Source: Octopus vulgaris
Taxonomy: Eukaryota
Length of the DNA: 64,000 nt
NCBI GenBank assembly: GCA_951406725.2
Contig: OX597820.1
Location: 83,328,001-83,392,000, forward strand
Direction: 5' to 3'
Made by a program: the position numbers and the translations under genes. Shown here piece after piece: positions 12,960 through 58,710 of the stretch; the stretch's first letter is position 1, and every line of letters starts with the position of its first letter. A model generated the notes under the pieces. It searched no databases. It saw only the letters and a program-made list of their open reading frames with translations, and was not told where the DNA came from.

Positions 12960-15310
12960 ATAAGCTTGTGTTTGTTTTATTATATGACAATAAAAAGTGA
13001 GTTATATGTGTTATTTATTTATCAATACAATAATGTCAATTAGATAATACAGTTAATTTAAATAGGTAATTCACTCATGCTTGAATGTAATGGTAGTAAT
13101 CGTGAATTAATTTATTGAAATATTCATGTTGCATTAAGAGTGAATATTTCTTTATAAACAATATATTATTTTGTTTTATATCAGAGTGCAAAGCAAAAGA
13201 AATTGCTTTTGCTTCCACACATGATGCTCGTACCTAATGTTGGCCGTGTGAAAAGTATGGTTGTTCAAGTTGCAATGCAGCAACTTTTAGTGTTTGGCCT
13301 TGATTTTATTAATGCTCATGGAAAAAGAAAGTGAGAAGTGGGATAGGAAATTAACCGCTTAAATTGGAATGGAACATTGGAACTGGTATGTGAGAAATGA
13401 AGACGTTCTTACGTTTACCACAGCCAGTGAGAATATTTGACTCAATGTAGTTCTTCGTGAGTTTGTGCACAATTAGACTTGTAACATTGCATAATTTTGA
13501 TTGAGGCAAATTATGTAATAGCATAACAGGGGTCCATTTTTCAACCGAAGACTGAAGACCTGTACCTGGTGGTTCTAGTGAGTTCAAAAATTCGATGGGG
13601 CAGGTAACAATATCCTGATCATCAACATACCTGTTAATTAGGTTCTAGGTGAAAACCTCTCCCGGAAGTTTATTCAATAGCATATTAATATAGCTACGTA
13701 CAGCAACTTTTTTTGGAGCCAGGATAACTCGTCCAGAGATCCAATTTGTATTGTTGTTGTAATGAAGAAGATTAGGAAGGATTTCATCCACTAAATCATT
13801 GATGGAATCAGTTGATTTACATATGGGATTGAGTGTAAGAAACTGCTATTTATCAATTCGAACGCACGCTTCACCGAGTTTCAATAGCTGATCTGCAAAT
13901 AGTTCACCTGATTGATATTTTGAAAGCCTCGATCTCATATAATAATTGATTTAGAAAAAAGATCAGTTTCATATATGAACTACTGTTTGTTTATTATATG
14001 ATAATAATGAGATGTATGTGTTATATTTCTTATCAATACAGCAATGGCAATTATATAATACACTTCCTTTAAATAGGTAATCTACTCATTCTTGAATGTA
14101 ATGATAGTAATGACAAATTAATTTATTAAAAGATTCATGTTGCATTAAGAGTTAATATTTCTGTATAAAGATTTTGTTTTATTTCGGGGGGAATAGTCAA
14201 ACCGATTTGCTTTTGTTTCCACATCATATGCTTGTACATAAGGTTGGCTATGTGAAAAGCACAATTGCAATCCATCAAATTTTAGTGTTTGGCCCTGAAT
14301 TTTATTAATGCACATGGCAAAAGAAAGGGGGAAAGGAAACTGTAACCGCTTCAACTGGAATGGGACATTAGATGGAATAACTGGTATGGTGACGAACACG
14401 ATCTCACCTTTATCACAAGCAGTGAGAATAGTTGCCTCAATGTACTTTGTCATGAGATTGTACACAATTAATCCTGTGCAATTGCATAATTTTGAGTGAG
14501 ACATATTGTGTAATGACATAACAGGAATCTCTTTTTGTCATGTGAAGACAATGAGGAGCTGTACCTGCTGGTTCTAGTGAGTTCAAAATTACGATTGGAT
14601 GGTTAACAGTATCTTGATCATCAACAACACTGTCAATTGAGTTACAAGTGAATACTTCTCCTGGAAGTTTATACAATAGCGTATTCTTAATTCTTTCTAC
14701 AGCAACATTTTTTGAGAGTAGGTCGCTCACTGACTCAATCTGTATTGGTGTAATTATGAAGAAAATTAAGGAAGATTTCATGCACCAAATCATTGACGGA
14801 ATTAGTTGAATTACATATTGGATTGGGTGTAAGAAACGGTACTTTATCAATCGGAAATCACCCTTCACCGAGTTTCAAGAGCTGCTCTGCAAATAGTTCA
14901 GCTGATTGATCTTTTGAAAGCCTCGATCTCATATAATAACTGATGTAGAAAAATAATCAGTTTCATACATGAACTTCTGTTTGCTTATTTTATGAAAATA
15001 ATAAGTGAGTATTATCATAATTATGAATACTCAAATGGCAATTATGTAATACACTTGATTTAAATAGGTATGTTCCTCAAGTTGCAATCCAGCAACTTTT
15101 AGAAAGTTGGATGGGAAACAGTAACCGCTTAAATTGGAATGGAACATTAGATGGTATAACCGGTATGCGAGGAACGCAGACGGTGTCACATTTACCAAAA
15201 CCAGTGATAATATTTGCCTCAGTGCAGTTCACCATGAGTTTGTGCACAGTTAGTGCTGCATCATTCCATGATTTTTGTTCAGAGGAATTAGGCAATAGCA
15301 TAACTTCCCC
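12960..15310 (-). mobile_element. Helitron PIF1-like helicase C-terminal relics in ~1-kb head-to-tail tandem (2 full units plus 1 deleted unit)
   Basis: Three diverged copies of LCN.T.LIV..L..NYIEA.ILTG.GK....IPRIPVIPSNVPFQFKRL.FP; the two full units continue into INK.QGQTL. Repeated anchors TTTGAAAGCCTCGATCTCATATAATAA occur at ~13919 and ~14913. Confidence 0.9.
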
Positions 15311-25771: not shown

Positions 25772-26184
25772 GTATCGCGTGTGTATGTATTTATGTATGA
25801 AGATGCAAGTGTGTGTGTGGGCTTGTTTATATGTATGTGTAAAGGTAATGAAATTGTAATTAAATGATTTAGGAAATGCGAAGCTGAGTTGTTATTTTAT
25901 GTTTAGGGAGCTTATCATGAGTGAGATACGGAAGAATGTGAGCCCAGCAAGTGGATGGATACCCAGGAAATGATTAAATCTCTTATAAAATATTAAAAAC
26001 AATGTCAAGCGTTTAATTACTATTACATTCGATACAGAATATATTAAAAATTAGTGCTCAATATTCTTAATTGCCTAAACAATGAGTGTTTTCTACAGTT
26101 ATCGACTGTAATAGAAAAAGAAACCATGACATCGAGCGTACGTCTTTGTTTAGTAAAGATAAAACTATTACCAGATGGACATTA

Positions 26185-27825
26185 TCTTACATATTAAAAC
26201 TAAAAGTATCTGTGTGTGCGTGTGTGTATCGGTATGTCCTCGTTTTGTGCTAAAAACTGTTCGACCGATTTTTCTTAAACTTCACACGCACATTACTTAT
26301 ATGTCTGGGGGAGGTCTTAAGTATAAATTGATTTCGAAAAAATGTACGGGTAAACGGCGGAGTAACAGTTTTTGTGCGCGGTTGAACGGCGGGCGTAATT
26401 ATTTTAAAGCTTCCACGGGAAATAACCCATTCTCTCCTTCGAAATTATTTGGTAAAAATGAAATTGAGTATGGTTTCACGGAGACAATATACAACCTAGC
26501 GCTGGTTGAGATTGAAAACAAGACTTTAGCTTTAGGCGGTGAGGTAATGCCCACTTACGGGCTTCTCCCTGCTGCAAAGCCTACCTCATATGATCTCTCG
26601 TGTGAGATTGTTCGGGAAACATATTACTACATTACTGAACTATCCGCATGTGTACAGATCAATGAGGCACTCCTGCTACCTGACCAGAAGCACGTCTACG
26701 ACAATATCGTTACGCAAATCCTGGGTCGTAAAGGTGGCATTTTCTTCCTTAACGCTCCTGGCGGGACAAGCAAAACGTTCGTAACTAGACTCGTTCTTGC
26801 AAGAGTAAGGCTACAAAAGTGCATCGCAGTAGCTGTGGAAACTTCGAGTTTAGCTACTACCCCGCTCCCTGTCGGTAGGACTGTACACTTTACGTTTAAG
26901 CTTCCCCTTAAATTCGCAAGTTCACTAACACCTGTTTGCAACATTTCAAAGACGTTGGACAACGAGCAATTGCTCCTACAATGCCTCCAGACTTTTTGGA
27001 ATGAATGCACAATGGCTCACAAGGGCGGCCTTGAGGAAGGAATTAGATAGAACTTTGCGAGACATAAAGGAAAGCCACGAACCGGTGCAGGGTGTCACTC
27101 TCTTGCTATATGGGAATTTTAGACAAACCTTGCTAGTGATTGCGAAAGGCACAAGGGTGGATGAAGTAATGGCGTGTCTTAAGTCTTCACTTCTATGGGG
27201 GTCAGTTTGCTACTTTAATGTTAGAATCCAACGTGAGCGCGCCTCTATGAGGAGCTATTGTCAGAAGATTTCATGAGGGACATTCTCCTTGGCGATGGTG
27301 AAGTTCCAGAAGATGGAAATGAATATGTTGACATAAGTAACATCTTCACAATAGCCAGTACTATCCATAGTCTTCAGGACCAGGTCTTCCCAGGCCTAGA
27401 AGTCTACAACGGAGATCTAGATATTGGCTTTGCCAAAGAGGCATTTTGGCTCCTACAAATGTTGTTCAATAGTACACGCCTTATTATCGCAAAATTAGTT
27501 CCCAATGTCATTGAAGTGACGATTATGACAATCTGTGGTAAAGGTTAAGACGTTTTCAAACTGCGAACTCCCCTTGCGCCTTCGGCTGCTGACTTGCCGT
27601 TCACATTCCGCAGAGTGTAGTTATCGATTAGACTCAGTTACGTCATATCCATTAATAAGTCCCTGGGGTGGTCGTTGTCTGTCGTTGGACTTTACTTTGC
27701 CAAACCATGCTTTTCACACGGTCAACTGTACGTTGACTGCTCAAGAGTGGGTTGTAAGAATTTTTTTCATGCTTTCATCCCACAGTGGAAAAGTAAAAAT
27801 GTTTCTAAGGAAGTTTTGTAAACTT
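26185..27825 (+). mobile_element. Internally deleted Helitron: 5' TC terminus joined to PIF1-like helicase pseudo-ORF
   Basis: A|TCTTACATATTAAAA start. FFLNAPGGTSKTF (Walker A), AVAVETSSLATTPLPVGRTVHFTFKLPL, WNECTMAH (Walker B region), LLYGNFRQTL and PCFSHGQLYVDCSRVG follow, with frameshifts and stops. No 3' CTAG terminus was located. Confidence 0.9.
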
Positions 27826-31133: not shown

Positions 31134-33638
31134 TTTCTTTATTAGCCACATAGGGCTGCACACGGACGGGACAGATTACAAAGTAGAGCTTTTCTTTTGG
31201 GGGAGGAAAACAATTGGGGTAGGTGTTCGATCAATAGGGATCGTGCATCACAGAGTCATGATGTAAAGTTAAAGGGGGAAGCAGATAAGGTTTATCCGTG
31301 GAAAGAAAAGCCTCCGGAAAAGACTACGGTAACCTCAGTCAATAATGTCACATGTTAACACATTTATTTGCAAGTAGGTAACTCTCTGTTTTAAATTTTT
31401 CCGGGTTCATAGGATTATGCTCAAGGTGGGTTCGTTATTCATACATGCCATCCTTGCTACGTTCACCCATCATTTTTTAAAACATTCGCTAGACAAAACT
31501 TGCCTCTCTACTCTCACTTTCCTATTCAAGTGATACTTGAAGAGGTTGATGAGAGATTGACCAGAGAGGAAAATGTTTGTCTCCAATCCTTTCGGATGTG
31601 TCTACCAGATACATTCTTTCGCCATAGCAACAAGAATGATGAAAATAGCTCTACCTTCCCGCTTGTAGAAAGGAGGCGTGACAATATTGATGATAGACTC
31701 GGCTGATAAACCGACTCGTCCCACACGTGACAGCAGTCGTTCGACATAAGCCCACAGGTCGGAAATTGTTGGACATTACACGAGTGCGTGCAGAACGGTT
31801 TCGTCGCTCTGACCGCATCTCGGAGAGGTCGGCCCTGTGTTTCTCGAGCCGTGTCTGTAGAGTTTATCCCGAACGGGTAGCGCTTCTCGGTAGCACTGCC
31901 AGGCCAGGGATCTCTGGAAGTTGTCAATGGGCCCTGGCCCGAAAGTCATCCTGAAACAGGCGGGTCAGGTATTCTTCGTCGACGTCCTAGTTCGCCCCGA
32001 GCTCGTCATCGTACCTCACCTCCACTAATCCCCTATAGAATGCTTTGGTTCTGTTGAAGTCACTGAAGATCGTCCCGGGACGGCATAGATGATTGAGAGC
32101 AACGCGACACTCGTGGTGCCATTCGTCCTTCCTCGGCCTCTTTTTGATCCACAACTGCAGTTCGGTCATGGAGACGAGTTGCGAGAAGGTGTGCCTCACA
32201 AACGGCGACCACAGCTGTTTACCGTTGTCTACGTAGAGCCTCAGATATCACAGTCTCAGCGCATGTTTGCGCATCATCAACCACGGCATGCCCAGTCCTC
32301 CTTTTAACGGGTGTTGACAGCAAATAGATCGCCTGACCATCGGGACCTATCCTCTCCACAGTAAGCGAAAGAGAATGCGTTCTAATTTAGTGATGTTAGG
32401 GTCGGAACAAAGCACGACGATCAGGCGGTAGTAGATGACGGATGCGATGTTTGAGTTCACCACCTCCGCCTGACCTTTTAGGGACAGTTTCCTCTCGGCC
32501 CATTGCCGGGCGAGAGTGAACGCCCTACTCGTTATCTCGTTCCAGTTTTTCTCCGTTTGGAGGTCCGGACCAAACCAGACCCCTAGCAACTCGACCGGAC
32601 CGTCGGTCCAGCGTCCCACGATGGAGGCGTTGGTAGACGGCATGGGCTTGTTTCTCCAGGTGCCGAGCCGCAAGCCCACTGATTTTTCCCGGTTGATTTT
32701 CGCTCCTCTCACCGCTTCGTAGTCTTTCAGTGTCTCGCCAACCAGCTCGATGTGCTCGTAGCTAGACACTATGACGGTGACGTCGTCCGCGTATGCAGAC
32801 ACGCTCGTCCTGCATCCCAATTCTCGCGGGATGCCCCTCAGAGTTGCCAGCTTCCGCAATAAAATCTCGAGAGACAATACGCTGAGAAGTGACGAGAGGG
32901 GGCATCTCTGACGGACCGAACGTGCAATGTTGAAAGGTGTCGATAGATGTCCATTAACGCGAATTACCGAACGGATACCTCTGTACTAAGCGGTTATACA
33001 ACCGCGGAAGATGGAACTGAAACCAGCTGCTCTGAGGACAGCCTCCAAGTATCGATGGTCTACCCTATCGAAAGCTTTCGATTGATCCAAATTGATCAAG
33101 GCCCCACCAATGCCAGGTTCCTTAACTTCTCTGTCTATGATGTAGCGCATCAGATGAAGGTTTTCATGGATGCTCCGGCCCGGCACGGAGCACGATTGCG
33201 CATTCTCGACCAGTTTCTCGATGACAAGCGCCAACCTCTTGGCTAACACTTTGGCCAAACTTTTCAAGTCTGCATTAAGCAGAATGATTTGCCTAAAGTT
33301 ATCTATTACATCCCCTTTGTTTAGATCTTTCCTCAGCAGTGTTACGGCTGCTCGGCTCACAAAACCAGGGATGCTCCCGTTTTGCTGCCAGTTGCAGTAC
33401 ACCGCTGCTAAGACGTCTCCAAACAAGTCTGGCATACAACTGTAAAGCTCGTAGGGTAGACCATCCAAAGCTGACGATTTGTCCCTCGAGCAATCTGCGA
33501 TCGCGTCCCGCACTTCCACCACTGTGATGGCACCTTCGCAGCGCCCTTCCTCTCTTGTCGAGAGTCGTGGCAGGCTGTGTAGGTAGGCACTGAAGTCCAC
33601 CCTATGTTCTTGCCCGCCACTCGTCCCGAAGAGTCCTT
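31134..33638 (-). mobile_element. 5'-truncated Tx1-clade LINE: RT, zinc knuckle and 3' UTR; pseudogenised
   Basis: KSSALDGLPYELY, NFRQIILLNADLKSLAKVLAKRL, LINLDQSKAFDRVDH, SVRQRCPLSSLL, SAYADDVTV and CPRCGQSDETVLHALVQC. Ends GTGGCTAATAAAGAAA and sits between (AC)n-rich flanks. Visibly more GC-rich than its surroundings. Confidence 0.92.
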
Positions 33639-33845
33639 TCAGATAGAAACACACAAACACACACACGCACTCATACACACACGCTATCTCTCTCGCTTTC
33701 TCCCCATTCCTAACCCTCATGTACTATCTTATATCTCTCTCCACCCCATACACACTCAATAATACTATAAAAAGAGAGAAAATTCCTGCAAAAGTTCAAT
33801 TTGACAACTCCACTAGAGTGGATGAATGCGCTATTATATGATATA

Positions 33846-43820: not shown

Positions 43821-46009
43821 TTTTCTATACAAAATGAAATTCCTCTAAGATCAACACTTGTGAAATATTTACTACCAGTATGAACGTATGTGGCTCAAGC
43901 ATAAGCATAATCAAATAAATGAAACAAGGAACGGGATATATTTGAATTAGAATTTTTTCCTTGGTTATATGTAGAGAGGATCGTCTTACAGTTAAAACTA
44001 ATATGTATTCATGCAACTAATTTCACCACTAATATATTCCAACTAGGTAGGAATTCCCATGAAAGTAATTGATAGGTAACTAGATAGATAGATAGATATG
44101 AGATATGGAAATCAAGAAGAGTGGAGAGAAAGAGAGAGAGAGAGAGAGAGCAAGGAAATTTGAAGTGTCAATCTTACAAAATGCAATGGTTTCCATTCAA
44201 CATACCTGATGCATTATTTTAAAATGAAATTACATGGTCATAGTTATACTATCAAAAATATTACCTGGGGCTAAAATACAGCAATAATCACAACAACATC
44301 ACATCACAACTATCTCAACATACAATATTTAACTTTAAAGAAAATATGTTATGGAAGAATGTATATCGTAGGCAGAATCAATGGTATGTGTTACAGTTGT
44401 TCTTCATTCTTTATTTACAGTTTGAACAGTGGAATCTCCAATCACTATGTGTTCTGCTTTTAGTACGATAATATTCTATCTTGGCTATTACCACAACAGA
44501 AACAGACACCATACAATAAACACAAAATTAAAAAGCAAGTAAGCTTATATAAAATATAAACCAATTTACGATATAAATATTTTAATTTTTCCTTCAGTCA
44601 CATATGTTACTTCTTTAACGTAAGAAGAAAATAAATACTAATCAGTTTGAAAGATTGATCGCTGTTTTCATTGACTTCTACTCATTTAAATGAGACTTTG
44701 TTATTTGCAAAACAGAAACTTTTAATGCATCAAAATTTTAAGGGAAGCTTAGCACAGCTGTTTGTGATAGAAGAAACTAAAAAACAATATGGAATATACT
44801 GAACATAATATTCAATACAATGATTAATTTTCGTTTTGTTTTCGTATTATCTCTAATTGATTACTTTTATATTACTTAAGTATGCAAATAATTTTTGTAT
44901 TAGTATTATTATTTTTGAGTTGTAATTTTATTGCGTACTTACACTGCATTACCAAGTGGAAAATATTGAACTTGGGTACTTAAAAGTGTTTTCCCCCATT
45001 TCCCTCTGTTTTATCTTATTTAGCATACTTTAATATATATCCATTCACTGTACGTACCAGTGATATATTCAGTATGGTGTATATTTCTATAGTCTTTGTT
45101 ATTTTATGCTTCTGTATTAACTTAATCCTAAGCCACTTGAAAAGAGTGACTGTGCTTTCAGTCTGGGTTACTATTCCCAGAATTACATTTGGATATTTTC
45201 TTCATTTCTTTTAGAATATATTATATTCGATTAGAAAGAAAACTTTGATTAAGCAACACTTCATTTCCTGGCCGTATTTGACAATATATGACATATTTGT
45301 CTTGGTATCGGGTTGGTTAGAAAGTTTGACTTATGAGTATTATTTTTTAAAGTAATTTGAGACTCGCACTATCCAAAGTTGGTTTCGTTGTCATAGGTTT
45401 ATTCCCGAATCAAGCGTACGTCGATTATCACCGGGAGTCAAAGATTATCACCGGGACTCATAAGTCAAACTGCCAGTCGAGCAGCGTGATTGATGGAATT
45501 TACACATTAGGTTTCTATGGAGGTTTATAAGTGGGCAAGTGCGATATCGTGGTCGTAGAGAAACTGGCAGTCATCAATATCCCATGGTGGGTATTTTACG
45601 ACTTTGGGGCCTGATCCCATGTTGAATTTCAGCGCACTAGTTATCATACTAAAAATCCGCAAATAGTCTACATATATTTCATTGGTCGTAATGACTCCTG
45701 TGTACGTTGAAATCTAAATAATTTAGTCTCACTAAGTATTGCAGAATTCAAGTAGTTTATTAATCGTACATTCACCAATTCAGAATTTGGAACATATCTT
45801 TCCTCTTGTTCATTGCACAGTCAGTAGCACACTGGTTACTATAGACATTTAAGAAACCAATTCATTTCGGCATAAACTGTAATTCGCTGCGCCCAGCACT
45901 TCATCGCTTTCGAGGTGAAAAGTTTACAAAAACCTCTTTCTATTCATCGCCAATAGTAGTTGCTAAAGTATAAGTTCACGTATGCGTACATATATCACCT
46001 ATCATATAT

Positions 46010-46074
<65 letters not shown>

Positions 46075-46077
<3 letters not shown>

Positions 46078-46717
46078 AATTAGTAAATAAATGGCACAAT
46101 TAAGTACCGATATTTACTGGAAATAGCGAACGTAAAAATACGACGCTAATGTGTAGCTTCACCGCGTATGTATTAGCAAAAATGCGTGTGTGCAACAAAA
46201 TAGAGAAAAAAAAACCGTCTTACCTCCAGGGAGAACATCTGAAAGATGAAACACCCGGAAAATGGATAATGTGGTACCTGCAGGTTTCAGGTTTTGCAAG
46301 TTATGTCTCTCACTCATATTTTGCTTTACCTTCTTCAGCCAAACATATACCAAGACGAAATCTACGATGTTACCAAATTAATACTAACACACTCGACTGA
46401 AATACGGAACGCTAACAGTACGAGAAACGGTGAAGAAGCTTCAAAATATCAGTAATGCAATACAAAGTATTGCCTTCCAGTAAAAAGTAGCCCGTGAGGG
46501 AAAAATACACAAATTAGTAAATAAATGGCACAACTAAGTACCGATATTTACTGGAAATAGCGAACGTAAAAATACGACGCTAATGTGTAGCTTCACCGCG
46601 TATGTATTAGCAAAAAATATCGGTACTTAGTTGTACCATTTATTTACTAATTTGTGTATTTTTCCCTCACGGGCTACTTTTTACTGGAAGGCAATACTTT
46701 GTATTGCATTACTGATT
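46075..46717 (-). mobile_element. Non-coding Penelope-like pLTR / retrozyme-like element: 434-bp unit, partial tandem copy and inverted tail
   Basis: 46075-46183 is repeated at 46509-46616. 46617-46717 is the reverse complement of ~46447-46549. Contains a hammerhead core and has a paralogue at 56826-57347. Confidence 0.8.
46264..46351 (-). ncRNA. Type I hammerhead ribozyme (predicted)
   Basis: GGUAUAUGUUUGG-CUGAAGA-[AGGU aaa GCAA aa UAUG..CAUA ac UUGC aaa ACCU]-GAA-[ACC ugca GGU]-A|CCACAUUAUCC. All core nucleotides are present, with a GUA cleavage triplet. Confidence 0.85.
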
Positions 46718-46734
46718 ATATATATATATATAAA

Positions 46735-47293
46735 ATCAAAATGAGGGTGAAAAAATTGGATATTAATTTAATAGCATCAATTTAGCACCAGTGGTTTAGC
46801 GCATAAAAAACTGAGATTCAGTAAAAATATTATTAATACACAACTATTAGAGAGAATCCACTATCTGGGCACCCTTAAGCTAAAGAGAGATCCGAATGAG
46901 TCTCAACCACTAAGAATTGTTCTCAAGAAAAATTTAGCACACTATGAACGTAAGCGAGCAGGACAAATGAAAAATAACAAAAATATAGATTAACCCCATG
47001 CAATTGTTTCACTGTTAATAAATTATGCAATTTTACCTACACAATTAACCTGCAGATGATCAGTTAGGTCCGTCATAAAATATAATTTGTCGAACTGCAT
47101 GCCAGATATTAACACGAGGTCAAAAATGCGAGTAGTTCGGCCTATTATATTCACAGTTATATTCAAATGCCCTCGTTCAAGCGCGCCAAATAACCGGAAA
47201 TAAATACTGCATAAATAATTCACTGCAGTGGTTTACGCCGGTTTGAGAACATATTGATTTAGAATTAATATCAAAATGAGGGTCAAAAAATTG
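46735..47293 (-). mobile_element. Second PLE pLTR-like unit (535-bp period) with decayed hammerhead
   Basis: Direct repeat ATCAAAATGAGGGT(G/C)AAAAAATTG at 46735 and 47270. Hammerhead-like core at 46992-47071. Confidence 0.55.
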
Positions 47294-47620
47294 ATAGCAG
47301 AACTAAATTACAATGTTATCGAAGCAGTGATTGCAACTGGCCTCCAAAATGGTAAACGTCTGTTCATTCCGCGGATACCCCTTATAACAACCGATACTCA
47401 GTTTCCGTTCCAATTAATGCGCAGGCAGTTTCCGATAACACCGTCATTCTTATTCACAGCAAGCAAGACACAGGGCCAGAGTTTAGATCGTGTAGGTGTA
47501 TTTTTATACACTCGAATGTTTACACACGGTCAGTTATACGTCGCTGTGAGTAGAGCAGCAGAGTAATTTGAAAATTAGTGTCGACCACAAACAAAATATC
47601 GTCTCCTAAGAGGTTTTGTA
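47294..47620 (+). mobile_element. Helitron PIF1-like helicase C-terminal fragment
   Basis: NVIEAVIATG..GKRLFIPRIPL...RRQFPITPSFLFTASKTQGQSLDRVGV...FTHGQLYVAVSR. Confidence 0.9.
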
Positions 47621-47714
47621 ATCATATCGATATTAAAATCCATTTACACATTTTTCAATACATACGGTTGTTATGATTTATGCCTCAATTTATGCCTCCA
47701 TCGTAGATGGGTAC

Positions 47715-47728
47715 TAGTAATAGTAGTA

Positions 47729-47867: not shown

Positions 47868-50800
47868 GGAGAGAACACCGGGGACGTTTAAGATGTGAGA
47901 ACGATAAAACAGTGCCCCGAAATCTATCCACAAACATCGAAAACAAAGACATCGTATGGAGCCAAAAATTTACTAACAAAGAATTGGACTATATCCGAGT
48001 AAGTAATACTCATTGAAATTTATTATTATTTTCGAAACGAAATGATGTATTTTAACTCGATATCATCTCCACCTCTAACACAACACATGTAAACATGCGT
48101 GGACATTACGATCCGTCAACACCAGATTACCCCCGACTCCAAATACAATGTAACGCAAAAAAATATATCAGAAATAGAAATATAAAAGGAAAAATACATC
48201 AGGAAAATGTAGATAGAAGCCACACAACAATGCCCAATAATATAAAAACTGAAACAGTAAAACACGAAGACAAACGTAACATTTCCAACAAAAAATTGGG
48301 ATGTAAACAAAAAACAACAAACCCAGACCGTAAGGATGCATAATAATACACGACAAACAGCAAGCCAAAACACGACAAACTAACATACAAATGAGAAAGA
48401 AAGTGACACAAATCTAAAATCTGGAAACAACGAAGGGGAGCCAACAAACACGATGTAAACAACGAAGGGGAGCCTAATGATTATGATAATATAAAAAGTA
48501 AAATAATCAAAGAACTGAAAACCACAGAGCTCAAAATGGACCACCGACCATACCTCCCAAAAATCAAAATAGACGAAACAACAACACCAATTATAAGCAA
48601 TATAAACCTAGCCGTCACGGAACTAATAGCCACTGAAAAAAAAAGCGATATCACTGAGCTAAATGACTTAGTATACGCAGCAGCCACTGCAGTCAAAATA
48701 GAAGCTGGATACTCACTCAAACCCATCCAAACAGAAGTACCACCACCCAAAAAAAACCTGTGGATAAATAACATCCCAAGCAACATACAATAAATGAGAA
48801 AAGATCTGTCGATTCTTAATGAAATCAGTAGACAATCAACGCTACTGAGCAAAAAAAAGAAAACAAAAATACTCCGCAAATACAACATCACAGAAAAAGA
48901 TTTACCTGAGATAAAAGAAAAGCTAAAGCAAGATATCCTTGCCAAAGCACAAAGGATCCGCCGGTACGAGAAACGCCAGCGCTTCTTTGAACAAAACAAA
49001 AAGTTCAACTCCAACCCCAAAAAGTTCTACCAAGAATTTGGCAAAAATAAAATAGAAATCACTGCAGCACCAACGGCAGAAGAGGTGGAAGGATTCTGGA
49101 GAGAAATATGGTCGGCGAACGAACAACCAAAAACAGGAGTATTAAAACAACAAACTCAGCATCTGAGCAACTTTGGACCCCATAACAACTGAAGAGGTCA
49201 CGCAGGCACTGCAAAGACTAAGCAACTGGAAGGCACCTGGGTATGACAATATCCCGAACTTCTGGTTGAAATATCTAACAGGAATGAACAAAAGCTGTCT
49301 GAAAATTTTAACAAATACTAGCAGAGCCAGAGACAATGCCTGAATGGCTCACGAAGGGGAAAACTATCTTAATTCCCAAATCAAATGAGACAGCAAAACC
49401 AGAAAGCTACAGACCAATAATCTGTTTCCCTACAATGTACAAGGCATTTACTGCAGTGATATCGTAAAAGTTGAACAAGCACCTGGACGAAAACTACCTG
49501 TTTCCAGAAGAGCAGAAAGGATGCCGCAAAGTTTCATATGGCTGTAAAGATCAACTAATGCTTAATAAAGCCATAACTGAAGACAGCCACAGAAAGAAGA
49601 AAGGCCTCAGTATGGGCCGGATCGACTACAAAAAGGCGTTTGATAGCATCCCCCACACATGGATCCTCGAAACACTAGCCATTAACAAAGTAGCACCAAC
49701 AATTATAAAATTCATATGACACTCTATGAATAAATGGCAAACAGTGCTACAGCTCCAAACAAAAGAGGGACTCATGAAAACCAAAGCCATCCCCATTAGA
49801 AGAGGAATATTCCAGGGAGATTCGCTCTCTCCACTACTTTTCTGCTTGGCACTGTCACCTCTATCTGATATGCTACATAGAACTGGATGCGGATATAAAT
49901 GTTACGGCAAAGCGATCAGCCACATTTTATATATGGATGACCTAAAACTATACGCTGCAAATGACAAACAGCTGGAAAAACTATTAAAGCCAGTTCATGG
50001 ATTTACCAAAGAAATAGATATGAATTTTGGATTAGAAAAATGCGCCAAAGTAACCCTGAAAAGAGGAAAACAAGTGAAGAGTAGCAACATCACACTAGAT
50101 AAAACCAAGAAAATAAAAGAATTAGACCAAAACCAAACTTACAAATACTTAGGAATCCATGAACTAGATAAGACACAACACACACAAATGAAAGAGAAAA
50201 TAAAAAAGAATATTATAGACGAGATAGATCAATACTAAAACAGATCTCAATGCTAAAAACAAGATAATAGGTATTAACATTTTAGCTGTCCCTGTTATAA
50301 GTTACAGCTACAATATCCTTAACTGGACACTAAATGAACTGACCAAAATAGATAGGAAAACAAGAAAAATAATGACAGGATCTAGGATGCATCACCCAAC
50401 ATCTGACATAGAAAGACTATATATACAACGTATAGAAGGTGGTAGAGGCCTTATACAGCTGGAGAACTACTATAAAATAACCACCATAGGATTGCAAAAA
50501 TATCTACTTCAGAAGGATGGAAAACTGATACAAATAGCGGCAAAACACGAGCGAAACAAAAAACTGTTCTCAGTATATAAGGAAGCTGACAAATACAAAC
50601 AAGAAATCATACCACCTAATAAATATGAAGATGAAGAAGGAAGAAGAAGAAGAAGAAGAAGAAGAAGAAGAAGAAGAAGAAGAAGAAGAAGAAGAAGAAG
50701 AAGAAGAAGAAGAAGAAGAAGAAGAAGAAGAAGAAGAAGAAGAAGAAGAAACAACAAAAGCTATAAAACAAATGAAATCCAAACTAAAAATAGAACAGCA

Positions 50801-51857
50801 ACGAGCCATGATAAAACGATGGCAAGAAAAGCCCCTTCATGGTAAATACTGCACTAAACTAAACGCAAAAGAAATAGACAAAGAAAAATCCCAGCAATGT
50901 TTGAGAAGCTCAGGACTCAAAGCAGAAACAGAGAGATTCTTAATTGCAGCACAAGACCAAAGCCTCCCCACCAGAAATTACCAAAAACATGTAATGAAAA
51001 GAAATATTACAAGTAACTGCAGAATATGTGGAGATGGACAAGAAACAATAAATCATATTATCTCTGGCTGCCCAGTCCTGGCTAAGAAGGAATATATTCA
51101 CAGACATGACAGAGTTGGAACCTACATACATTGGAGATGGACATGAAACAATAAATCATATTATCTCTGGCTGCCCAGTCCTGGCTAAGAAGGAATATAT
51201 TCACAGACATGACAGAGTTGGAACCTACATACATTGGAGATGGACAAGAAACAATAAATCATATTATCTCTGGCTGCCCAGTCCTGGCTAAGAAGGAATA
51301 TATTCACAGACATGACAGAGTTGGAACCTACATACATTGGAAGTTATGCCAACATTATGGAATAACAACAGAAAAAAGATGGTATAGGCACACACCAGAA
51401 AAGGTCACAGAAAACGAGAAAGCAACCATACTCTGGGATATGCCGATACACACAGATAGAGAAATTAAGGCCAACAGACCAGATATAGTTGTCAGAGATC
51501 ATGAAGAAAAAAAATGCTTTCTAATTGATGTATCAATACCGGCAGATGACAACGTGTCTCTAAAAGAAATAGAGGTAACTAGAATGTGGAACCTGAAAAC
51601 AGAAACAATTCCTATCATAGTAGGTGCATTAGGCATGATAAAAAAATATTCAGACAAATACATGACAAAAACACCAGGACTTACAAACACATATAACATA
51701 CAGAAAATTGCACTACTAGGCACTGCACACATCCTACGCAGAACACTTTCCATACAATAACCATCAGAGCATCACAACAAATCACAGCACATACCCAAGG
51801 CACACAGAGCTGCGCTCGGTAGTGAAGTGAAAGCACGCTATAAAAATAAAACTACTG
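47868..51857 (+). mobile_element. Near full-length Dong/R4-clade non-LTR retrotransposon (RT, CCHC, restriction-like endonuclease), inactivated
   Basis: WKAPGYDNIPNFWLK, EEQKGCRK, IDYKKAFDSIPH, RGIFQGDSLSPLLF, YMDDLKLY, RLYIQRIEGGRGL, CRICGDGQETINHIISGC and RPDIVVRD..CFLIDVSIP. Contains several stops and frameshifts. Flanked by (AAT)n on both sides, the known Dong target type. Confidence 0.95.
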
Positions 51858-56825: not shown

Positions 56826-57347
56826 ACTGCGTATGTACTAGCAAAAATGCGTGTGTGCAACAAACTTGAAAAAAATTGTCTTACCTCCAGGGAGAACATC
56901 TGAAAGATGAAATACCTAGAAAGGGATAATGTGGGACCGGTTTCAGATTTTTCAGGATATGTCTGCACATATATACTTGATTTATCTTCATCAGCCAACA
57001 TATACCTCGACAAGATTTCAGATGTTGCCACATCAATGCTAATACAATCGACTGAAACGCCAAAACGCTGACAGAACGAGAACAGTGATGAAGTTTCAAT
57101 AAAAATAGTAATGCAATACTAGAGTATTGCTTTCCAGTAAAGAATAGCCCGTGAGGGAAAATTATACATAGAAGTAAATATATGGCACAACGAAGTACCG
57201 ATATTTACTGGAAAATAGCGAACGTAGTAAATACGACGCTAATGTATAGCTACACCGCGTATGTACTAGCAAAAATGCGTGTGTGCAACAAACTTGAAAA
57301 AAATTGTCTTACCTCACGGGCTATTCTTTACTGGAAAGCAAATACTG
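56826..57347 (-). mobile_element. Second copy of the hammerhead-bearing pLTR/retrozyme-like element: 428-bp unit, partial tandem copy and short inverted tail
   Basis: 56829-56886 is repeated at 57257-57315. 57312-57347 is the reverse complement of ~57123-57157. Colinear with 46075-46717. Confidence 0.8.
56924..57006 (-). ncRNA. Type I hammerhead ribozyme (predicted)
   Basis: GGUAUAUGUUGG-CUGAUGA-[AGAU aaa UCAAG uau AUAUGU gcag ACAUAU CCUGA aaa AUCU]-GAA-[AC cg GU]-C|CCACAUUAUCC, with a canonical GUC cleavage triplet. Confidence 0.88.
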
Positions 57348-57349
57348 TA

Positions 57350-58306: not shown

Positions 58307-58507
58307 TTCTTTTACTTGTTTCAGTCATTTGACTGCGGCCATGTTACAGCACGGCCTTTAGTCGAGCAAATAGACCCCGGGACCTATTCTTTGTAAGGCC
58401 AGTACTTATTCTACCGGTCTATTTTGCCGAACCGCTTAGTGACGGGGACGTAAACACACCAGCATCGGTTGTCAAGCAATGCTAGGGGAATAAACACAGA
58501 CACACAA

Positions 58508-58538
<31 letters not shown>

Positions 58539-58710
58539 CATATATACGACAGGATTCTTTCAGTTTCCGTCTACTAAATCCACTCACAAGGCATTGGTCG
58601 GCCCGGGGCTAATAACAGAAGACAGTCGCCCAAGATGCCACGCAGTGGGACTGAACCCGGAACCATGTGGTTAGTCAGCAAGCTACTTACCACACAGCCA
58701 CTCCTGCGCT
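58307..58710 (-). mobile_element. tRNA-derived CORE-type SINE (family B; resembles octopus OR-type SINEs)
   Basis: Minus strand reads GCGCAGGAGTGGCTGTGTGGTAAG (A box), GGTTCCGGGTTCAGTCCC (B box) and CATCTTGGGCGACTGTCTT (CORE-like). An internal (TA)/(TG) tract precedes a tail ending GAAACAAGTAAAAGAA. Confidence 0.85.

Follow-up and report, generated by a model that had tools for sequence, protein, structure and literature searches.

Penelope-like elements (PLEs) leave a recognisable insertion pattern: units repeated in partial tandem, a 5'-truncated copy inverted next to the 5' end and, in some clades, a bias towards (TA)n (PMC8557442). Non-autonomous PLEs in head-to-tail arrangement have already been described, and most families of the Chlamys group lack canonical hammerheads (PMC8557442). 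Non-LTR retrozymes have been argued to be non-autonomous PLE derivatives, and dispersed monomers are described among them; two consecutive hammerhead units serve as the criterion for an active retrozyme (bioRxiv 10.64898/2026.07.22.740005). A short palindromic helix III that needs a dimer has been described for metazoan type I and PLE hammerheads (PMC4209133), and hammerheads also occur in schistosome satellite-like repeats (PMC8490949). In vitro, the PLE reverse transcriptase (RT) of Anolis (PAc) starts internally, downstream of the hammerhead, at AT-rich targets, and works on unprocessed RNA so that ribozyme cleavage is not needed (PMC11167929). How the partial-tandem, longer-than-unit form arises and what the hammerheads do are open questions in the PLE field (PMC8557442, PMC11167929), and the link between retrozymes and PLEs rests, in the papers cited here, on co-occurrence and phylogeny. 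A 2026 annotation of O. vulgaris counts 190 Penelope-like families (6.83% of the genome), 31 of them recently active, and the portions of that paper considered here do not mention ribozymes (PMC13282606). No cephalopod is named in the main text of PMC7229834, and the sampling set out in the consulted part of bioRxiv 10.64898/2026.07.22.740005 includes no mollusc.

The 64-kb stretch of Octopus vulgaris DNA analysed here (the window) carries a non-coding repeat of ~430 bases at two loci, 46075-46716 (copy A) and 56829-57349 (copy B). Taking the internally initiated and the circular routes of copying together, the repeat is very probably a non-autonomous element of the PLE/retrozyme type.

Architecture of the two loci and their predicted hammerheads

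On the ribozyme strand both loci have the same order of parts: an inverted 5'-truncated copy, a head-to-head junction, a partial unit and a full unit (Table 1). The period of A is 434, with 110 of 112 overlapping bases identical, and that of B is 428, with 66 of 73 bases identical in the tested range and an exact match over 56829 to 56887. The two units are 83% identical, have a G+C content of 0.376 (A) and 0.369 (B), and start and stop at different points, so that the two copies are different permutations of the unit. The inverted arm of B is exact over 57312-57341 and reaches 57349 with one inserted base. Alignments of the periods and arms confirm the arrangement described in the first-pass annotation, namely one full unit (434 and 428 bp), a permuted partial tandem and an inverted tail per locus. 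Its count of two copies in the window also holds, as nhmmer gives no third copy in the 64 kb, and the score of a diverged candidate relative left of B (37) is not above shuffles (maximum 41). The microhomologies it had named at the two arm junctions fare differently: CCTC at 57312 is exact, while AAAT at A fits only with one extra base, because the junction has six A and the forward donor five, leaving AA/AAA as the clean overlap. The flanks of B are ordinary and without a microsatellite, the longest word common to both being 4 nt.

Table 1. Coordinates of the two copies, their predicted hammerheads, conserved blocks and adjoining tracts in the window
Feature	Position	Strand	Details
Copy A, main part	46075..46616	-	542 bp, 1.25 units of a 434-bp repeat; RNA sense on the minus strand; ends at 46075 (3', +200 from the cut site) and 46616 (5')
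Copy A, inverted arm	46617..46716	+	5'-truncated second copy; source 46547-46448, 1 mismatch; 3' end at +261 from the cut site; AA(A) microhomology at the junction
(TA)n tract left of copy A	46005..46074		putative target
(TA)n tract right of copy A	46717..46732		putative target
Predicted type I hammerhead of A	46272..46341	-	core CUGAAGA 46338-46332; helix II AGGU/ACCU; 43-nt extended arm; GAAA; helix III a 10-nt palindrome; cleavage predicted after GUA at 46275; 3-bp proximal helix I
35-nt block identical in A and B	46217..46251	-	just downstream of the cut site, +24 to +58; hairpin in the consensus fold; presumed functional role
Invariant AC-rich mini-hairpin (TGC-ACACAC-GCA)	46183..46194	-	81-92 nt past the cut site
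Copy B, main part	56829..57315 (loosely to 56822)	-	487 bp, 1.14 units of a 428-bp repeat; 3' end 106-113 nt past the cut site
Copy B, inverted arm	57312..57349	+	5'-truncated second copy; source 57156-57120; 3' end ~237-243 nt past the cut site; CCTC microhomology at 57312-57315
Predicted type I hammerhead of B	56932..56997	-	core CUGAUGA 56994-56988; helix II AGAU/AUCU; 43-nt arm; GAAA; helix III a 6-nt palindrome; cleavage predicted after GUC at 56935

Several other repeats lie in the window. About 0.5 kb to the right of copy A, a stop-free frame followed by a hairpin and CTAG (47258-47717) has no Pfam match; we take the frame to resemble the C-terminal end of a Helitron PIF1 helicase, and the hairpin with CTAG looks like a Helitron 3' end. 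Helitron-type helicase fragments lie at 26163-27548 and 14145-14874, with a Pfam PIF1 match for 26163-27047 (E 1.9e-20). A broken non-LTR retrotransposon occupies 47880-51760 on the plus strand (RVT_1 at 49720-50235) and is flanked by (TAA)n/(TAG)n tracts; its closest relative among the matches listed (120 of 1948) is 71% identical, and none of the 120 is a protein with a cephalopod name. RT fragments of another LINE lie on the minus strand at 32347-33723 (RVT_1). The SINE-like repeat at 58330-58710, whose motifs were not found in a literature search, is presumably of a kind known from octopus genomes and, with the microsatellite load, would suggest an octopus host.

The first-pass annotation had called the family ribozyme-bearing, and a type I hammerhead predicted in each unit, in both cases on the minus strand, upholds this. 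The type I descriptor matches exactly twice in the 64 kb when both strands are searched, once in each unit, compared with a mean of 0.01 matches (maximum 1) in 100 block-shuffled windows and none in 2000 shuffles of each unit. In the named hammerhead structure 27 of 28 cells pair across A and B, with two pairs changed on both sides, including in helix II; as a two-sequence covariation this is not above the shuffle control (131/500). Loose ends of public contigs, read by eye, supply more helix III variants and keep the GUA/GUC triplet. Rfam gives no match at gathering score in the 64-kb window, and the six weak matches at E<=10 within 46000-46800 include no hammerhead and reflect the inverted repeat or the TA tract; the hammerhead call therefore rests on our own descriptor, together with the comparison of sequences. 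A resemblance between the plus strand and U1 snRNA was considered and rejected, U1 being absent from the weak Rfam matches at E<=10.

Unconstrained folds of the 85-89-nt hammerhead regions are no better than shuffles (z -0.02 and -1.07), and constraining the fold to the hammerhead costs ~4 kcal/mol in A; no constrained fold was obtained for B, which has a helix III loop of only 2 nt. The palindromic helix III duplex is predicted at -17.7 kcal/mol (A) and -8.3 kcal/mol (B), and such a palindrome would predict cleavage as a dimer. Each window copy has one hammerhead only, therefore neither could excise a monomer.

Conserved blocks, predicted folds and occurrence in public sequencing runs

The segment from +1 to +261 relative to the cut site is 88% identical between A and B, compared with 76% for the remainder of the unit. 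The 35-nt invariant block taken alone is not significant (P=0.09); a peak of contig depth over 46225-46254 is seen in all four aligned runs described below. The AC-rich mini-hairpin is adjoined by the inversion junction of A (+93) and by a probable one in run X1 (+91). The 35-nt block also reads as an acceptor, 15 nt and a donor (GT at 46223), and further along the minus strand of 46117-46251 follow a T tract of variable length and, 107 nt on, another acceptor. Both copies preserve these donor-like and acceptor-like signals at their 107-nt spacing, and the block could be part of a PLE-type intron or only a structured, protein-binding hairpin. The aligned contigs list neither a splice joint nor a pile-up of ends, features that contigs could not reveal. 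An internal inverted repeat and hairpins lie within 46120-46477 (minus strand), including an 11-bp stem and a 7-bp hairpin near 46455-46472, and both inverted arms terminate in or just past the 7-bp hairpin.

When folded as a circle, the unit reaches a minimum free energy (MFE) z of -3.2 (A) and -6.5 (B), compared with -2.4 and -2.7 for the antisense (40 shuffles each). The A+B consensus circle folds at -85.8, whereas 30 column shuffles give -45.8 +/- 4.4; in the consensus fold helices II and III are present and the ribozyme core stays unpaired. The consistent and compensatory pairs over the whole fold number 16, within the shuffled range (mean 13.8, maximum 21). In linear form the MFE is flat wherever the unit is opened, and the cut site does not stand out. 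The stable closed fold predicted for the unit would suit a circle just as well.

Among public sequencing runs, 20 of the 24 listed hold 44-63% of 48 sampled words (three organism labels, nine studies). Four runs of one organism label (X1, X9, X11 and X12) were aligned to one unit, 46075-46508; X1 is a DNA run, and X9, X11 and X12 are only guessed to be RNA. X1 yields 536 contigs with many variants. Contigs of 362 nt (X12) and 364 nt (X9) cross the point at which the end of the unit meets its start, with short sides of 75 and 78 letters, and a contig of X11 crosses it with a short side of 27 letters, too few to count; in X1 the end-to-start continuity is seen with a few other letters between. 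The depth profile of X9, X11 and X12 resembles that of the DNA run, and a consensus-like contig can stem from sparse sampling of many copies, so that these three runs count for the continuity of the unit and not for expression. Summed depths in X1 range from 3,700 to 414,000 and are not a copy number; single contigs at depths of 741 and 1,048 against a low of 25 suggest, roughly only, a family of many copies.

Inspection by eye of 17 of the 48 loose ends in these alignments shows mostly diverged subfamilies of the unit, and no shared ORF junction among those 17. Two are probable new inversion junctions (X1 at 46184 and X12 at 46123, read by eye) and one is a microsatellite-like flank near 46079-46085. 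At 46301, 46314 and 46376 every covering contig differs from the window, thus these three positions look private to copy A; two of them belong to the helix II arm, in which the letters shared by the contigs seem to allow better pairing. No match to a 35-nt motif was found among metagenome contigs, and none to a 20-nt motif among viral contigs.

Insertion ends and routes of copying

Relative to the predicted cut site, the 3' ends lie at +200 and +261 in A and at +106-113 and +237-243 in B, and the 5' ends of A and B lie at +93, +160, +48 and +207; none of the window ends falls at the cut site. The four 3' ends, a small number, are spread over 155 nt and are all downstream of the hammerhead, and the eight window ends cluster on one half of the unit with borderline significance (P=0.055 in a post hoc test). 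With no end at the cut, priming did not take place at the terminus of a cleaved linear monomer, and the template crossed the hammerhead, either uncut or rejoined. Internal initiation on uncut RNA (PMC11167929) accounts for permuted copies of greater than unit length without a circle, and the single hammerhead of each copy fits such initiation on a linear RNA. On balance we lean towards this linear, internally initiated route, with the unit as a non-autonomous Penelope-like retroelement of miniature size that relies on a PLE RT-endonuclease acting in trans. An RNA longer than the unit would be transcribed across the hammerhead and left uncut at that stage. The PLE protein would bind the conserved part just downstream of the ribozyme and nick AT-rich DNA, the cDNA would start internally in that conserved zone and run slightly over one lap, and the other strand would yield a further, 5'-truncated cDNA, joined to the first head-to-head at a short microhomology. 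No circle is required along this route. We infer the driver, the transcription, the cleavage and the form of the template.

The crossing of the hammerhead could also have followed a non-LTR retrozyme cycle, a serious though less than probable alternative, in which transcripts of tandem master arrays elsewhere would be cleaved by their hammerheads to ~430-nt monomers, these would be closed into circles and a PLE RT would copy the circles for more than one lap, the window copies being dispersed offspring. The first-pass annotation had inferred a template of this kind, a circular or multimeric ~430-nt RNA copied by a PLE RT; the positions of the 3' ends suit internal initiation on uncut RNA as well as a circle. 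In size, in its 37% G+C and in its type I hammerhead the unit agrees with the definition given in PMC7229834, each copy is longer than one unit and permuted differently, the circular folds are stronger than those of the antisense and in the consensus leave the core unpaired, and the palindromic helix III would predict dimer cleavage. Against these stand the lack of a window copy with two hammerheads, which is the criterion for an active retrozyme in bioRxiv 10.64898/2026.07.22.740005, the confinement of the 3' ends to +106 to +261, and a whole-fold covariation (16 pairs) that stays within the shuffled range; moreover only one of nine Xenopus dimers cleaved in vitro (bioRxiv 10.64898/2026.07.22.740005). 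That octopus holds a high-copy cephalopod family whose ~430-nt RNA cuts itself, is circularised and is copied more than once around by a Penelope-type enzyme is, in our estimate, doubtful. If the circle reading were true, each permuted copy with its inverted arm would be the footprint of a PLE RT on a circular template, which would give direct structural evidence, beyond co-occurrence and phylogeny, for PLE proteins mobilising retrozyme circles, as well as a minimal substrate for how PLEs rebuild copies longer than the unit.

The remaining explanations dispense with a non-autonomous PLE-type element. It is very unlikely that the copies are truncated pseudo-LTR ends of a coding PLE, a possibility that the first-pass annotation had itself raised against its reading. 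Hammerhead, partial tandem and inversion are all found in coding PLEs, PLEs make up 6.83% of one octopus genome (PMC13282606 supplement), and the loose ends inspected, in which no shared ORF junction was seen, are 17 of 48. However, in both subfamilies the end of the unit continues directly into its start and leaves no place for an ORF, and an element that closes on itself in this way is not the end of a coding one. An ORF for RT and GIY-YIG between the pseudo-LTRs is absent from both loci, as is any conserved ORF, the longest stop-free frames being 98 and 107 aa; the 107-aa frame of B has no Pfam match and, in a weak test, no longer homologue among 70 candidates. Mobilisation by a LINE would make the unit a SINE-like element with twin-priming inversions, and a satellite monomer might have spread by DNA-level events; to either origin we assign very little probability. 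Microhomology-joined 5' inversions are known for L1, and the twin priming model predicts that the outer end of the inverted arm matches the junction position, which it does not do here. LINE RT fragments are present in the window and LINEs have been named as possible retrozyme drivers (PMC7229834), yet the copies lack a poly(A) or simple-repeat tail, a target duplication cannot be made out, their 3' ends are not fixed, and the window contains no tRNA gene call. A MITE or other DNA transposon with terminal inverted repeats would explain the inverted repeat at each locus and the position of A within (TA)n, but has next to no probability, since the two copies already speak against it: within each copy the outer 25 bases of one end differ from those of the other, and A also differs from B in them, the inverted arm runs from an internal position to the end and is not alike in the two copies, and the conserved hammerhead is left unexplained. 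Neither fixed terminal repeats nor matching terminal inverted repeats are present at A or B, and no duplicated target is discernible; the fixed TIR/TSD boundaries that the annotation had named as a finding against its reading are not seen.

Comparison with known systems

Among non-autonomous PLEs the octopus unit resembles MRC1 of Chlamydomonas (Craig et al. 2021, PMC8557442) in lacking an ORF, in its pseudo-LTRs and in its head-to-tail insertions. MRC1-type elements have 3' sequence in common with autonomous Chlamys families, whereas no such partner was found for the octopus unit. Of six short unit motifs compared with the supplement of Craig et al. 2021, five are absent and one gives a chance match in an ORF. 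The octopus Naiad and Hydra consensus sequences in that supplement share the (TA)n preference, Naiad_Ovul being flagged with half a hammerhead core and Hydra-1_Obim having a hammerhead. By eye, no likeness is seen in the 3' part of Naiad_Obim or in all of Naiad_Ovul and Naiad_Omin, and the first part and the hammerhead row of Hydra-1_Obim look unrelated. As far as motifs and by-eye comparison reach, these elements have no motif in common with the unit and are not its partner, and the same motif search and comparison found no autonomous partner among the published octopus consensus sequences.

The coding, endonuclease-bearing (EN+) PLEs (Penelope/Poseidon, Neptune, Hydra and Naiad; PAc of Anolis, PMC11167929) share parts of the insertion structure: the partial tandem, the inverted 5'-truncated copy, a hammerhead with palindromic helix III, an AT-rich or (TA)n target, as for the (TA)n site of copy A, and 3' ends downstream of the hammerhead. 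The octopus unit shows a partial tandem pseudo-LTR and an inverted 5'-truncated copy next to the 5' end in both window copies, and differs in having no RT-GIY-YIG ORF. In canonical PLEs the 3' ends occupy fixed sites that differ by a 30-40 nt tail carried by a fraction of copies, whereas those of the octopus unit range more widely, as given above. PAc starts reverse transcription in an AC-rich stem-loop ~85-92 nt past the cut site (by subtraction from the numbers of PMC11167929), and the octopus unit has its AC-rich hairpin at +81 to +92; since the ends seen lie downstream of this hairpin and not within it, the agreement in distance is a lead only.

Literature searches found no description of a ~430-bp octopus family of this kind, though Repbase, Dfam and the supplements of PMC7229834 and of the preprint could hold one. 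The first-pass annotation had read the repeat as PLE- or retrozyme-like and suggested that it may be an undescribed cephalopod system. The first part of that reading stands, with a non-coding hammerhead unit in PLE-type tandem and inverted structure; as to the second, the class is already known, and the repeat looks like a new family within it rather than a new class. A compact, ORF-less family with a PLE signature and variable permutations could separate the circle model from the internal-initiation model and offers a 430-nt test substrate, and it would add a ribozyme-bearing family to the octopus repeat landscape.

In size, base composition and ribozyme the unit resembles the metazoan non-LTR retrozymes (Cervera and de la Pena 2020, PMC7229834; Li, Clavereau and Pollet 2026), which have low-GC, non-coding units of 150-450 bp (350-390 bp in mussel) with a type I hammerhead, head-to-tail continuity, a self-paired predicted circle, a proposed dependence on PLEs and dispersed monomers. 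The octopus unit shares the type I hammerhead, a non-coding length of 434/428 bp, a G+C below 50% and the self-paired predicted circle. In contrast to those retrozymes, A and B are 1.14-1.25-mers with one hammerhead each, a PLE-type inverted arm and a 43-nt helix II arm, and a dimer is not seen. As neither window copy has two consecutive hammerheads, the two copies are filed as non-autonomous, PLE-type elements that are retrozyme-like.
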